Source: Escherichia phage Ge15 | Sequence record: PP359696.1 | DNA: 64,000 bases | Strand: one strand, 5' to 3' | Part shown: one piece after another, positions 56,550 through 61,034 of the stretch | How positions within the stretch are numbered: position 1 is the first letter of the stretch | How the letters are laid out: each line of letters opens with the position of its first letter | Position numbers and translations under genes: made by a program | The notes under the pieces: model-generated | The model's input: the letters and a program-made list of their open reading frames with translations, nothing else | The model's database searches: none | Told to the model about the DNA's origin: nothing

Positions 56550-56810
56550 ATGATTAACATCAATTCAAAATATTTAAATCGTCTAATAGATGGTATAAGG
56601 AAGCATACTAATAAGCAAGATAATCTTAATGTTATGGTAACAGGAGCTGAGCTCCTTCATAAGCTTTATCTTATAAGTGATACTATATTAGCAATTAAAC
56701 GAATTGAAAAACAATCATATCACAGTAATACAGATACGGTAATTACACTAGATGAAAGTGTCTGTAAATTACTAATTAAATTTGAGGAAGCTATTCGTGG
56801 AAATAACTAA
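56550..56810 (+). CDS. Hypothetical protein (dexA.x paralog family)
   Basis: 86 aa. Confidence 0.45.
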   Translation: MININSKYLNRLIDGIRKHTNKQDNLNVMVTGAELLHKLYLISDTILAIKRIEKQSYHSNTDTVITLDESVCKLLIKFEEAIRGNN

Positions 56811-57042
56811 AGATCAGTTTTATCTTCTTCAGGATAAAGTTAGCGAAATTTATGAAATTGCTCATGGTAAAAATCGTGAAACTGTAAAAATTGAATCTAG
56901 TAAGTTGATGCTTCAATTAGAAGAAATTGAACGAGATTTAATTGCGTTAGAATTCTTTTGTGGTGAAGTGAAAACTGTTACAATTAATGATTATGTTTTA
57001 GGCGAAATTAGCTATCTTTATGAGGCGATTATTAATGATTGA
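56797..57042 (+). CDS. Hypothetical protein (dexA.x paralog family)
   Basis: GTG 56797 after GAGGAAG; similar to next ORF (LEEIERDL/LEEIQKDI, INDYVLGEI/IQDYTVGQI). Confidence 0.4.
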   Translation: MEITKDQFYLLQDKVSEIYEIAHGKNRETVKIESSKLMLQLEEIERDLIALEFFCGEVKTVTINDYVLGEISYLYEAIIND

Positions 57043-57277
57043 ATTAAGTTGGTACCAATTTAAATCTCTTATGACAAATGTTAAAGCTGTCATTGAAGAA
57101 AATCAGGGTCCTGAAAATATTACTACTCGCGAAAAAGCTTTAAAGATAGTATACAGTCTTGAAGAAATACAAAAAGACATTGAATCTATGGCAAAATTTA
57201 TTGATGAGCCTATCAATAAAGTTTATATTCAAGACTATACTGTAGGTCAAATTCGTGATTTAGCGAGGAAAATTTAA
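57035..57277 (+). CDS. Hypothetical protein (dexA.x paralog family)
   Basis: ATG 57035 (ATGATTGA overlap). Confidence 0.4.
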   Translation: MIELSWYQFKSLMTNVKAVIEENQGPENITTREKALKIVYSLEEIQKDIESMAKFIDEPINKVYIQDYTVGQIRDLARKI

Positions 57278-57962: not shown

Positions 57963-58000
57963 AGTTGTTTACTTCCTCGGTTAGTTGTGGTATTATAACA
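57963..58000 (+). promoter_or_regulatory. T4-type early promoter
   Basis: GTTGTTTAC ... TGTGGTATTATAAC. Confidence 0.65.
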
Positions 58001-58023
58001 CCATAGCTACTGAGGATAATAAA

Positions 58024-58527
58024 ATGAAAATTTATCGTGTTGAATCATCATTTAGTATTCTTAATTATGAAGATGCTATAACAATACGTCGAGATCTTTG
58101 TGTTCAAATAACTCCGTACAGGAGTATAATAGATTCATGGAGTGAAGAGTGGTTATTACACGTAGGTTATGACAGACCTAATTTTATGCATCATAGTAAT
58201 GATAATAAAAGAATTCCTGTGCCGCATGAAGACAAATTATTAGTTAAAAATGCTAATATAGCAATTAATACTAATTTTGAGAAAGAAGAATATGTAGGCG
58301 TAGATCACTATATTCCAGGATGGTTTATAGCTCTTTATCATTTTGCTTTCGCTAGCGAATATGATATGATGAGATGGTTCACACGAGAAGAGCGTGAAGA
58401 ATTAGCTTCTAAAGGATTTTATCTCGCTGTATACGAAGTACCTGATGACCAAGTTATCATTGGCGGTCATCAAGTAATGTTCCGCAAGTCACATGCCGAA
58501 TTAAAAGGCTTTATTACCTTAGATTAA
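58024..58527 (+). CDS. Hypothetical protein
   Basis: 167 aa from ATG 58024 downstream of early promoter. Confidence 0.45.
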   Translation: MKIYRVESSFSILNYEDAITIRRDLCVQITPYRSIIDSWSEEWLLHVGYDRPNFMHHSNDNKRIPVPHEDKLLVKNANIAINTNFEKEEYVGVDHYIPGWFIALYHFAFASEYDMMRWFTREEREELASKGFYLAVYEVPDDQVIIGGHQVMFRKSHAELKGFITLD

Positions 58528-58539
58528 GGGGAAAACATC

Positions 58540-59034
58540 ATGAATATCAGTACTACAGCTACTTACATCCTGAAAGACGAAAAGCAAATCAACTGGTATG
58601 GTGCTTCAGTGCGAGCTTATGAAAAGTTTTGTGAAATTTTAGGCGCCACTCAAGGTAATAGTTTCACTATTGTTAACTTCATCAAACAAGCTGAAGGCCC
58701 TTGGTTATTCTTAGAAATTAAAAATTCATACGGTACAATTTCTACTACCGCCCTTCCAAGCACCGACTTTGAACTGTTGATTGAAGAAGTAGAACCCGTT
58801 AAAGACATCTGTATTGATATGGATATCGCTTGTATGTACGGTACTCTGGTTAAGCCTATTGCGCCTACTGATTTGTTGTGTAAAGCTGTTTCAATTCGAC
58901 GTCCGTTCGCAGGTCCAGTGAGTGGATGGGTAACTGATCAGTGGATTGAAGACGGTGTTGAACTTCTGAACGTTGTTCATGCAGGTGATTTTAGTGTAGT
59001 TCCACGTAGTGCAGTAATTAATATCCTTAATTAA
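58540..59034 (+). CDS. MotB-family-like protein (paralog 1)
   Basis: 164 aa; C-terminal block GWVTDQWIEDGVELLNVVHAGDFSVV shared with next two ORFs. Confidence 0.45.
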   Translation: MNISTTATYILKDEKQINWYGASVRAYEKFCEILGATQGNSFTIVNFIKQAEGPWLFLEIKNSYGTISTTALPSTDFELLIEEVEPVKDICIDMDIACMYGTLVKPIAPTDLLCKAVSIRRPFAGPVSGWVTDQWIEDGVELLNVVHAGDFSVVPRSAVINILN

Positions 59035-59106
59035 GTTTACTTTATAGAGAGCCTGTTATAATGGCTCTCATGGAGAATAAATCTTAACAACAAAGAGAGA
59101 AAAATT

Positions 59107-59580
59107 ATGATTACTATCGGTGAAATTAAGCGTGTATCGTCTGCATCTCGTTCTAAAGCTGCAGGTCGTCTAGTTGAAGTGGTAGGACTTCGTACTAATG
59201 GTACTGGTCGTGTTATAGAAGTTAAAGTTCGAATCATTCCTAGTTCTGGAAAAACTGAAACTCAGTACGCTTACGTAAGTCCTAAATTTCTGGAAACTCG
59301 TGTTAGCTCTCATTTTGCTTCTGTTGAAGAAGTTGAATCCACTGAGTCTAATGCACAATTTAAATGGGCGTTGTGTAAAGGCGTTGAATTTGTAACTGAT
59401 GAAGAATTCGATTATATTGATGATTTCGCTGGTCCAAGTAAAACTGATAGGATGTGTGGCTTCATCACAGACCAATGGGTTGAAGATGGTGAAAAGCTCT
59501 ACAATATCGTATTCTTAGGTGACTTCCGGGTTGTTGAAGAATCTGAAATCACTCGTTATGCTTCTCCTCGTAAAGCTTAA
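59107..59580 (+). CDS. MotB-family-like protein (paralog 2)
   Basis: 157 aa; N-terminal VSSASRSKAAGRLVEVVG and C-terminal GFITDQWVEDGEKLYNIVFLGDFRVV. Confidence 0.45.
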   Translation: MITIGEIKRVSSASRSKAAGRLVEVVGLRTNGTGRVIEVKVRIIPSSGKTETQYAYVSPKFLETRVSSHFASVEEVESTESNAQFKWALCKGVEFVTDEEFDYIDDFAGPSKTDRMCGFITDQWVEDGEKLYNIVFLGDFRVVEESEITRYASPRKA

Positions 59581-59589
59581 GGAATTATT

Positions 59590-60009
59590 ATGAATATTGT
59601 AAATCTCTCTACTGGTGATTACGTATATGTATCCGTTGCTTCTCGTTCTAAAGTTGCAGGAAAGCTGGTTGAAGTTCTTTCTGTAAGTGATCCAGTTTTT
59701 GGTCGTAACGAGGTTAAAGTTCGTGACGCTGATGGTAACATTGGTTATGTCTCAAGTCAGTTCATTGAGCCAGAAGAAAGCGCATTTAAATGGAAACTTT
59801 GTTCTTCAGTTTTAGTTGTAAAAGACCATAAATTCACAATTGCGGCGGCAACAGATGGAACTCCATGGACAACGAATCAAGTCGCTGGTTTTATTTCGGA
59901 CCGTTGGGTAGAAGATGGTGTCAAGCTCTACAATATTGTTTTTGCAGGCCAGTTCATGGTAGTTCCTGAATTCCAAATTAAAAAATGGTGCGAAGCAGCT
60001 TTAGCATAA
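59590..60009 (+). CDS. MotB-family-like protein (paralog 3)
   Basis: 139 aa; VSVASRSKVAGKLVEVL and GFISDRWVEDGVKLYNIVFAGQFMVV. Confidence 0.45.
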   Translation: MNIVNLSTGDYVYVSVASRSKVAGKLVEVLSVSDPVFGRNEVKVRDADGNIGYVSSQFIEPEESAFKWKLCSSVLVVKDHKFTIAAATDGTPWTTNQVAGFISDRWVEDGVKLYNIVFAGQFMVVPEFQIKKWCEAALA

Positions 60010-60116: not shown

Positions 60117-60386
60117 ATGGAAAATTTAATTATCATCGAGCAATCTTTCAATGATTATGGTATGGCTTACGGTTATCGTGCGATAATGGAAGATTCTCGT
60201 GGATGTGTTATCGATATTGCTGAATGTAAAGATTTACTGCAGCTTTTGAAGATTGTTCGCAAAAATTGGGATTGTGAAAACATTAAAGCTCGTGTTGTAA
60301 CGGAAGAAGAAACTGTTTTTCATGATGTAAAATTTGCCAAAGGTGCTGCTACTCTTCTGAAACGCATCGCTCCACTGTTCAATTAA
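60117..60386 (+). CDS. Hypothetical protein
   Basis: 89 aa from ATG 60117 after GGAG; promoter with palindrome upstream. Confidence 0.4.
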   Translation: MENLIIIEQSFNDYGMAYGYRAIMEDSRGCVIDIAECKDLLQLLKIVRKNWDCENIKARVVTEEETVFHDVKFAKGAATLLKRIAPLFN

Positions 60387-60399
60387 TGAGGAAATTGTA

Positions 60400-60615
60400 A
60401 TGAAACGTAAAATTGTTCAGAACTGCACTAATGACGAATTTGAAGATGTATTATTCGATCCAGATTTGGTAGTAGTTCAAAAGGAACATACCGTTAAGTT
60501 TACTCACTTGACTTCGGTTTATGTGTATGAAAAGGTTGGTGATAAACAACCAATTTACGGTGTATTTCGTGAAATTACTGAAGATGGCACAACTTACTGG
60601 AAGGAAATTTATTAA
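60400..60615 (+). CDS. Hypothetical protein
   Basis: 71 aa. Confidence 0.4.
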
Positions 60616-61034
60616 TGGCTATTAAATTTGAAGTTAATAAATGGTATCAATTTAAAAATAAACAAGCTCAAGAAGCTTTTATTAAAGACCATACTGATAA
60701 CGGAATTTATGCACGACGTTTAGGTATGCATCCTTTTAAAATTTTAGATGTTGACCATCTTGGTCGTCCTACTAAAATTATGTCATTTACTGGCACAATT
60801 GGATATGCAACACATGGTGATATCCTTGACGAAAACTTTATCTGGCTCTCTACTAACGAAGCTGAGTTCTTTGATGAAGTGGAAAATCCATATCAGGCAG
60901 CTGAAGAGCAAGAGCAGGAAGAGCAAGAACAAATAGAAGATTTCACAGAATTTCCTGTCATGAAAGTTACTATTGAAAATAATGAACAGGCATGGTCCTT
61001 GTATCAAATGCTGAAAGCACACTTTAAGGAATAA
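60615..61034 (+). CDS. Hypothetical protein with acidic EQEQEEQEQ repeat
   Basis: 139 aa. Confidence 0.45.

Follow-up and report, generated by a model that had tools for sequence, protein, structure and literature searches.

MotB of phage T4 (NP_049626, 162 amino acids (aa); Pfam family PF17613) is an abundant, early protein that binds both unmodified and glucosyl-hydroxymethylcytosine DNA tightly and without sequence specificity (PMC6070864, PMC7827196). H-NS and StpA co-purify with it only when DNA is present, it alters H-NS footprints, and when overexpressed it is toxic and raises the expression of H-NS-repressed genes of the host and of prophages (PMC7827196, PMC6070864). It has also been reported to raise burst size 2-fold (PMC6070864). 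MotB and MotB.1 have a common conserved C-terminal domain and different N-terminal domains (Patterson-West et al. 2021, PMC7827196), and duplication has been proposed as a possible origin of one of the two genes from the other. According to the same study, both motB and motB.1 occur in forty other phage genomes, RB69 encodes two motB genes and one motB.1, and RB51 MotB, RB51ORF010, Sf24 gp134 and RB69ORF010c ('similar to motB') are listed in Table S4 (PMC7827196). This work describes the corresponding locus in a 64,000-nucleotide (nt) stretch of Escherichia phage Ge15 (sequence record PP359696.1), referred to below as the window. Three adjacent open reading frames (ORFs) in it, named P1, P2 and P3, very probably represent the motB.1, motB and second-motB cluster of RB51/Sf23-type Tequatrovirus phages, situated in the variable early region.

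The motB locus of the window

A first-pass annotation, made from the letters alone, had described these ORFs as three tandem paralogs of a MotB-like family with a strongly conserved C-terminal block. The ORF list confirms three frames on the plus strand with products of 164, 157 and 139 aa (Table 1), each preceded by a plausible ribosome-binding site. In pairwise BLASTP, P2 and P3 aligned over 152 aa (40% identity, E 3e-23), P1 and P2 over 42 aa (50%, E 8e-6) and P1 and P3 over 30 aa (57%, E 4e-5); these E-values refer to a database size of 1e8 residues. All three proteins exceed the curated gathering cut-off (25 bits) of the Pfam motB family (PF17613, 'Modifier of transcription'): P2 scores 140.4 bits over its full length, P3 72.1 bits, likewise along its length, and P1 37.6 bits, the latter for residues 84-159 only. 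They also match phrog_1671 ('MotB-like transcriptional regulator'), over the full length in the case of P2 and P3. Six-frame translation of the window yields three instances of the signature D[QR]W[IVLF]E[DENG]G, all of them in P1, P2 and P3.

The BLASTP matches of P1 are short (30-42 aa), as might be expected if the C-terminal similarity were a chance or compositional match. That explanation is refuted by the profile matches above threshold and by the confinement of the signature to the three ORFs in 64 kb. A search of 1.84 billion representative proteins with a profile of the shared domain speaks equally against it, returning only 31 clusters, of which 28 are proteins of 43-251 aa that carry the domain at or near the C-terminus. 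The probability left for chance is practically nil. Three proteins of about 840 aa, considered as new domain contexts in that search, were discarded as spurious, being Ig-repeat or phage-tail-repeat proteins with weak matches in multiple stretches. The family appears to be tiny and confined to T4-like phages.

The part common to the three proteins is longer than the block noted at first. In a profile-level alignment of 22 C-terminal domains, P1 carries the whole domain, from (P/F)xxxLCKxV to the end, although about 15 residues of the first hairpin are deleted relative to P2 and P3. The signature of the domain reads G(F/W/Y)(I/V)(T/S)D(Q/R)W(V/I)EDG(V/E)(K/E)L(Y/L)N(I/V)V...G.F.VV. The N-terminal segment VSxASRSKxAG(R/K)LVEV, which had been recognized in P2 and P3, is nearly invariant across 31 family members. 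P2 and P3 combine this SRSKxAG N-terminal domain with a MotB-type C-terminal domain, whereas P1 has a different N-terminal domain. The alignments therefore describe the cluster as one full-gene duplication (P2/P3) and one domain-sharing relative (P1), not as the proposed tandem triplication: P2 and P3 are full-length paralogs, and the N-terminal domain of P1 is unrelated.

By profile and position, P1 is assigned to the MotB.1 subgroup, which has only the C-terminal domain of about 57 residues in common with MotB. It matches phrog_2333 (MotB.1) over residues 1-164 (E 5e-82), with a secondary match to phrog_1671 at residues 112-162, and its gene lies directly 5' of motB. Its identity by BLASTP is 73% to RB51 MotB.1 and 38% to T4 MotB.1 (P39415; PHROG 2333). 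P1 is the positional ortholog of the T4 protein, with the same type of N-terminal domain and a MotB.1-type C-terminal domain (GWVTDQWIEDGVELLNVVH). Unlike the T4 reference protein, which ends at residue 119, it has an additional linker with the motif DMDIACMYGTLVKP. This short motif, D[MF]D[IV]A[CS]MYGTL[IV]KP, spans residues 93-106 (window 58816-58857) and occurs once in the window. It is found N-terminal to the first domain in five MotB.1-family proteins (P0029, P0036, P0037, P0049 and P0030), is absent from T4-type MotB.1 and looks like a movable short linear motif.

P2 is 99% identical to RB51 MotB and 46% identical to T4 MotB over the full length (BLASTP), with which it shares the map position, the promoter and stem-loop and the two-domain layout. 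P3 is 100% identical to RB51ORF010, which occupies the same place directly after motB, and belongs to the ortholog group of RB51ORF010, RB32ORF010c and RB69ORF010c. It has the two-domain layout of T4 MotB as well (37% identity), but lacks the interdomain linker of about 20 residues almost entirely. T4 has one copy of the gene where the window has two, and its protein is basic (isoelectric point (pI) 9.2, net +6), whereas P2 and P3 are acidic overall. The P3 gene starts 9 nt past the stop codon of P2, behind an AAGGA ribosome-binding site, and is therefore probably co-transcribed with P2.

We assign the window to Tequatrovirus on nucleotide identity, which in this region amounts to 99.6% with Shigella phage Sf23, 99.5% with Escherichia phage teqhad and 95% with RB51, all members of this genus. 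RB51, teqhad and the window have the same gene order, which runs from dda through two dexA-adjacent small ORFs, dexA, motB.2, motB.1, motB, ORF010, ORF009, cef, goF and 39.2 on to 39. In the annotated regions compared, the T4 order matches that of the window except for two genes missing from T4. P1, P2 and P3 thus map to the T4 motB neighborhood in the early region from dexA to gene 39, as had been suggested, with P2 at the place of MotB proper, between motB.1 and cef.

The first-pass annotation had also called the arrangement notable, a judgment that does not stand. The relationship of MotB and MotB.1, the idea of duplication and phages with multiple copies are published, RB51ORF010 is itself an entry of Table S4 (PMC7827196), and RefSeq labels the orthologs of P2 and P3 'MotB-like transcriptional regulator'. 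The family, its shared C-terminal domain and these very proteins are part of the literature and of existing annotation, so that the observation is real but ordinary and carries little weight as a discovery. What is added here is the purifying selection on each paralog, the presence of P3 in 207 of 777 records, natural MotB/P3 chimeras and an extra G in T4 motB.1.

Table 1. Genes, protein domains and putative regulatory elements at the motB locus, in window positions.
Feature	Position	Strand	Extent in protein	Basis and remarks
Early-promoter-like site TTTACT, 17 nt, TATTAT	57968-57996	+		Promoter scan; at the head of the motB.2/motB.1 unit
Stem-loop around this promoter-like site	57974-58017	+		Fold -23.7 kcal/mol, z -5.5; encloses the -10 element
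motB.2 ortholog (context)	58024-58527	+		93% identical to T4 MotB.2 (BLASTP); phrog_1106
P1, motB.1, full-length form	58540-59034	+	164 aa	ORF list
P1 N-terminal domain	58540-58794	+	Residues 1-85	AlphaFold2 model
P1 low-confidence linker with DMDIACMYGTLVKP	58795-58860	+	Residues 86-107	AlphaFold2 model
P1 MotB-type C-terminal domain	58861-59031	+	Residues 108-164	AlphaFold2 model
Promoter-like site TTTACT, 15 nt, TGtTATAAT (extended -10), in front of P2	59036-59062	+		Read from sequence
Stem GAGAGCC/GGCTCTC, loop holds the -10	59047-59053 / 59063-59069	+		Fold -19.2 kcal/mol, z -3.3
P2, motB ortholog	59107-59580	+	157 aa	ORF list
P2 basic KOW-like N-terminal domain	59107-59292	+	Residues 1-62	
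P2 acidic linker		+	Residues 63-83	
P2 C-terminal domain	59356-59577	+	Residues 84-157	
P3, second full-length MotB paralog, RB51ORF010 / RB69ORF010c type	59590-60009	+	139 aa	ORF list
P3 N-terminal domain		+	Residues 1-60	
P3 C-terminal domain	59785-60006	+	Residues 66-139	
Perfect 13-bp inverted repeat ATCAGTAGTTGAT ... ATCAACTACTGAT, 3' of P3	60050-60092	+		Fold -25.7 kcal/mol, z -5.1
89-aa ORF (context), RB51ncORF009c	60117-60386	+	89 aa	phrog_3720

Predicted folds of the N- and C-terminal domains

AlphaFold2 models of P1 and P3 were built with family alignments. The P3 model (mean predicted local distance difference test score (pLDDT) 83.5, predicted template modeling score 0.64) consists of two five-stranded barrels, residues 1-60 and 66-139. 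In the P1 model (mean pLDDT 78.5), the C-terminal barrel at residues 108-164 has a pLDDT of about 87-91. P1, P2 and P3 are each composed of two small β-barrel domains and a linker, and the C-terminal domain is homologous in all three. The structure predictions favor the expectation that the proteins have a fold in common, and they place it in the C-terminal domain.

The C-terminal domains of P1 and P3 are modeled with a short 3-10 helix between strands 4 and 5, as is the N-terminal domain of P3, and in neither model do strands 3 and 4 of the C-terminal domain have a helix between them. A helix between strands 4 and 5 is the arrangement of SH3-like barrels, whereas the OB-fold has its helix between strands 3 and 4. 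On the basis of this helix placement, the models suggest that the C-terminal domain is SH3/Tudor-like rather than an OB-fold. The combination expected of the latter, a five-stranded barrel with its helix after strand 3 and with OB-fold structural neighbors, was not obtained. HHpred had suggested an OB-fold of the cold-shock or eIF5A C-terminal type for this domain of MotB (PMC7827196), an assignment that would then possibly be mistaken.

The KOW/SH3-like appearance that had been ascribed to the N-termini of P2 and P3 is in keeping with the five-stranded barrel of the P3 model and with two distant family members (P0239 and P0245) that match Pfam KOW (PF00467) above the cut-off. A Foldseek search of viral predicted structures (BFVD) with the P1 model returned MotB.1-type and MotB-type proteins and also a 'KOW domain-containing protein' of Serratia phage PS2. 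Sequence searches of the Protein Data Bank with P2 alone, with the C-terminal-domain profile and with the MotB profile gave a single match, ribosomal protein bL9 at E 1.1, and no usable relative. Proteins with tandem SH3-like barrels, such as Spt5 (KOW6-KOW7), NusG (KOW), 53BP1 (tandem Tudor) and KIN17, have a sequence identity of only 10-20%, and the resemblance to them is a fold analogy, not family membership.

For the N-terminal domain of the P1 type, the literature describes a GoF/Frd.2-type barrel with an LSm/SH3-like fold: Kim et al. (2025, PMC12152347) group that of MotB.1 with GoF and Frd.2 in one LSm-like fold family found in Tevenvirinae. BLASTP detected no sequence similarity between P1 and GoF, and no match described as GoF or Frd.2 was present among the BFVD matches of P1 at E ≤ 1e-3, several of which have no description. 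The link between GoF and the MotB.1 N-terminal domain accordingly comes from that publication and was not reproduced by either search. In the window, goF (60615-61034) lies 600 nt 3' of P3 and 1.6 kb downstream of P1. If the link holds, the products of four genes within 2.5 kb would draw on no more than three types of small β-barrel.

The predicted fold raises a possibility that we regard as tentative and rather unlikely, namely that the shared C-terminal domain is an SH3/Tudor-like protein-protein or oligomerization module through which P1, P2 and P3 co-assemble or dock on a common partner, while the N-terminal domains contact nucleic acid. Apart from the helix placement in both models, it is consistent with the acidic nature of the best-conserved motif, DQWxEDG, with the net charge of the domain (-7 in P2, -2 in P1), with its fusion to N-terminal regions of four or more types and with the partly dimeric behavior of T4 MotB.1 on a gel (PMC12152347). 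The HHpred indication of an eIF5A-type OB-fold argues against it, as does the lack of confident MotB.1 homomultimers in AlphaFold3 predictions (PMC12152347). The acidic motif is no less in keeping with protein contacts or a structural role than with DNA binding, although we give this alternative a similarly low standing. We consider it doubtful, and slightly less likely than a docking function as such, that MotB, P3 and MotB.1 form a mixed assembly via this module, with interchangeable KOW-like and LSm-like N-terminal domains setting a DNA or RNA target.

Distribution, selection and remodeling of the locus

A tblastn search with P3 of 50,697 phage records gave family matches in 777, of which 207 carry P3 orthologs (≥ 80% identity). 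In the other 570 the best match is below 60%. Because no record falls between 60% and 80%, P3 appears as a discrete, old ortholog group that is present in about a quarter of the family-bearing records. The motB-P3 pair, with its 9-nt spacing, is kept in phages Mizar and phiE142, the latter of which also has a P1-type motB.1. The ratio of nonsynonymous to synonymous divergence (dN/dS, Nei-Gojobori) between orthologs is 0.30 for P1 (versus RB51), 0.18-0.34 for P2 and 0.17-0.20 for P3 at dS values of 0.3-0.65. Given dN/dS values of 0.17-0.34, each paralog is under purifying selection and none is a decaying copy.

This bears in particular on P3, which could be taken for a redundant, decaying copy of motB without a function of its own, since T4 and the 570 records do without it and it lacks both the linker and the basic charge of T4 MotB. 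The intact frame, the 80-100% identical orthologs in 207 records, the conservation of position and spacing in distant phages and the confident AlphaFold2 model all speak against decay, and the selection test largely refutes it. We therefore deem it highly improbable and treat P3 as a maintained gene.

The domains of the family occur in several combinations. MotB.1-type C-terminal domains, about 80-88% identical between proteins, are fused to several unrelated N-terminal regions in products of about 144, 164, 180 and 250 aa. In two proteins (P0058 and P0074), a MotB-type KOW-like N-terminal domain is joined to a MotB.1-type C-terminal domain. Three others (P0148, P0149 and P0151) combine a T4- or P2-type N-terminal domain with a P3-type C-terminal domain, the first two with the join at the FKW(K/A)L boundary. 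In P0148, a T4-type N-terminal domain and linker are joined to the P3-type domain at FKWKL. The protein is encoded on metagenomic T4-like contigs (L004:3001-3492, L005:2199-2690 and L006:37-528), where its gene is the sole motB, between motB.1 and the 89-aa ORF. Such a chimera is the expected leftover of unequal recombination between tandem motB copies and can be read as evidence of this process. BLASTN also aligned the 3' end of P3 and the downstream spacer to the 3' end of T4 motB. A recombinant origin of the single T4 motB (P2-like 5' part, P3-like 3' part) was nevertheless dropped, as a codon-window comparison was not decisive: for the greater part of its length T4 motB is nearer to P2, and its last 90 nt are ambiguous.

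Strong stem-loops flank the motB genes. Promoter-early stem-loop (PeSL) elements, which lie between the genes of hyperplastic regions and have the PST/T4 early promoter consensus TTTACW-N17-TAYWAT (PMC4122927), have been proposed as drivers of module shuffling in T4-type phages (PMC2839356, PMC4122927), and the stem-loops flanking motB resemble them. The element at 57968-58017 fits the definition, with a 17-nt spacer and a z-score of -5.5. The one at 59036-59069 forms the stem, and its -10 sequence is TGnTATAAT, but its spacer is 15 nt long and it was not listed by the promoter scan, which covered spacers of 16-18 nt. T4 has GGGACC/GGTCCC at the same place, so that pairing 5' of motB is preserved through compensatory changes in the two arms. 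The 13-bp inverted repeat 3' of P3 is likewise carried by T4, 3' of its single motB.

The motB.2 product was considered as a further paralog, in view of its name and of the label 'transcriptional regulator' in some records, and was dropped, as Pfam and PHROG searches gave no Pfam motB match and no other MotB-family signal. The spacer between motB and cef in T4 (170 bp, annotated as intergenic) keeps the start (ATGGAAAAT) and the last ~55 nt of the 89-aa ORF, joined out of frame. It is therefore best read as a deletion remnant of the gene that is intact in the window. Between dda and dexA, three successive ORFs of 85-86 aa (56550-56810, 56782-42 and 57020-57277; span 56550-57277) were observed, the last two of which are dexA.2 and dexA.1. 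In related contigs, genes at the first two or three of these places encode products that match one Pfam family, PF26837 (Phage_T4_Y00H_G), and the ORFs look like another small tandem paralog set beside the motB cluster.

T4 motB.1 itself differs between records. The reference gene (NC_000866.4, 7291-7650, minus strand; 119 aa, '13.8 kDa protein') is shortened by a single additional G within the codons for the conserved DQWIEDG (ATTGGAAGA versus ATTGAAGA, matching window positions 58936-58950), and the remainder of the domain, EDGVELLNVVHAGEYSVVPRSAVVAILN up to the stop, is intact in the next frame. The extra G is present only in AF158101.6 and NC_000866.4 and missing from 13 other T4-named genome records; the intact protein of 143 aa exists (P0014). 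Aligned to P1, the 119-aa protein would lack roughly the last three strands of the C-terminal domain. Kim et al. (2025) synthesized motB.1, cited NC_000866.4 for T4 sequences and reported a 13.8 kDa monomer (PMC12152347). As this is the size of the truncated form and the cited record carries the extra G, it was probably the truncated product that was expressed, and the published null results for T4 MotB.1 would have come from a synthetic 119-aa product.

Expected expression and role of the cluster

The putative promoters and stem-loops suggest that the genes are transcribed early as two units, motB.2-P1 and P2-P3, and that a PeSL-type promoter and stem-loop precedes each of them. By homology to T4 MotB, P2 and probably P3 would appear within minutes of infection, act as sequence-nonspecific DNA binders and alter the placement of H-NS (and StpA) on DNA. 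As a result, H-NS-silenced genes would be de-repressed and burst size modestly raised. Contact with nucleic acid would most likely be made by the basic (pI 10.7, net +7), KOW-like N-terminal domain of P2. P3, expected on the same transcript as P2, would act in the same pathway, and P1 would link the common C-terminal domain with another type of N-terminal domain, which may be directed at RNA.

Several points weigh against this account. The functions of all three proteins are proposed by homology, and P2 is just 46% and P3 just 37% identical to the one MotB that has been studied. Compared with the basic T4 protein, the overall pI is acidic in P2 (5.2), P3 (5.4) and P1 (4.6), and P3 is without a basic domain, the net charge of its N-terminal domain being -1. 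With charges that differ in this way from T4 MotB, it would be unsafe to infer that P3 and P1 bind DNA. Promoter activity in front of P2 is predicted from a site with a 15-nt spacer. The published OB-fold is at odds with the present models, so that either domain might bind nucleic acid. In addition, a T4 motB.1 deletion phage had no laboratory phenotype (PMC12152347).

The same charge differences, acidic P1, P2 and P3 versus basic T4 MotB and a P3 without a basic domain, argue against simple redundancy. The paralogs might instead be specialized for different host targets (H-NS versus StpA or plasmid- or prophage-encoded H-NS-like proteins, or DNA versus RNA), with copy number as a host-range adaptation. 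This would agree with the strongly different charge patterns of the three proteins, with the location of the genes in an early region that is hyperplastic and has PeSL-type elements at its borders, with the presence of P3 in some related phages and its absence from others, and with the reported LSm-like fold of the P1 N-terminal domain, which is often tied to RNA (PMC12152347). Patterson-West et al. found no clear link of tree branch to phage genus, and the association of MotB with H-NS is only through DNA (PMC7827196), both of which count against specialization of this kind. On balance, we consider it unlikely, and favor an H-NS-directed early role by homology to T4 MotB for P2 and, with the reservations given, for P3.

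The cluster probably originated by old duplication and domain shuffling, with ongoing remodeling by recombination between tandem copies. If the C-terminal domain is SH3/Tudor-like, the search for the DNA-binding surface moves to the KOW-like N-terminal domain. Constructs built on the T4 reference annotation of motB.1 miss part of the conserved domain. RB51/Sf23-type phages, in turn, naturally combine MotB with a second MotB and a full-length MotB.1, and could serve for probing redundancy within the family.

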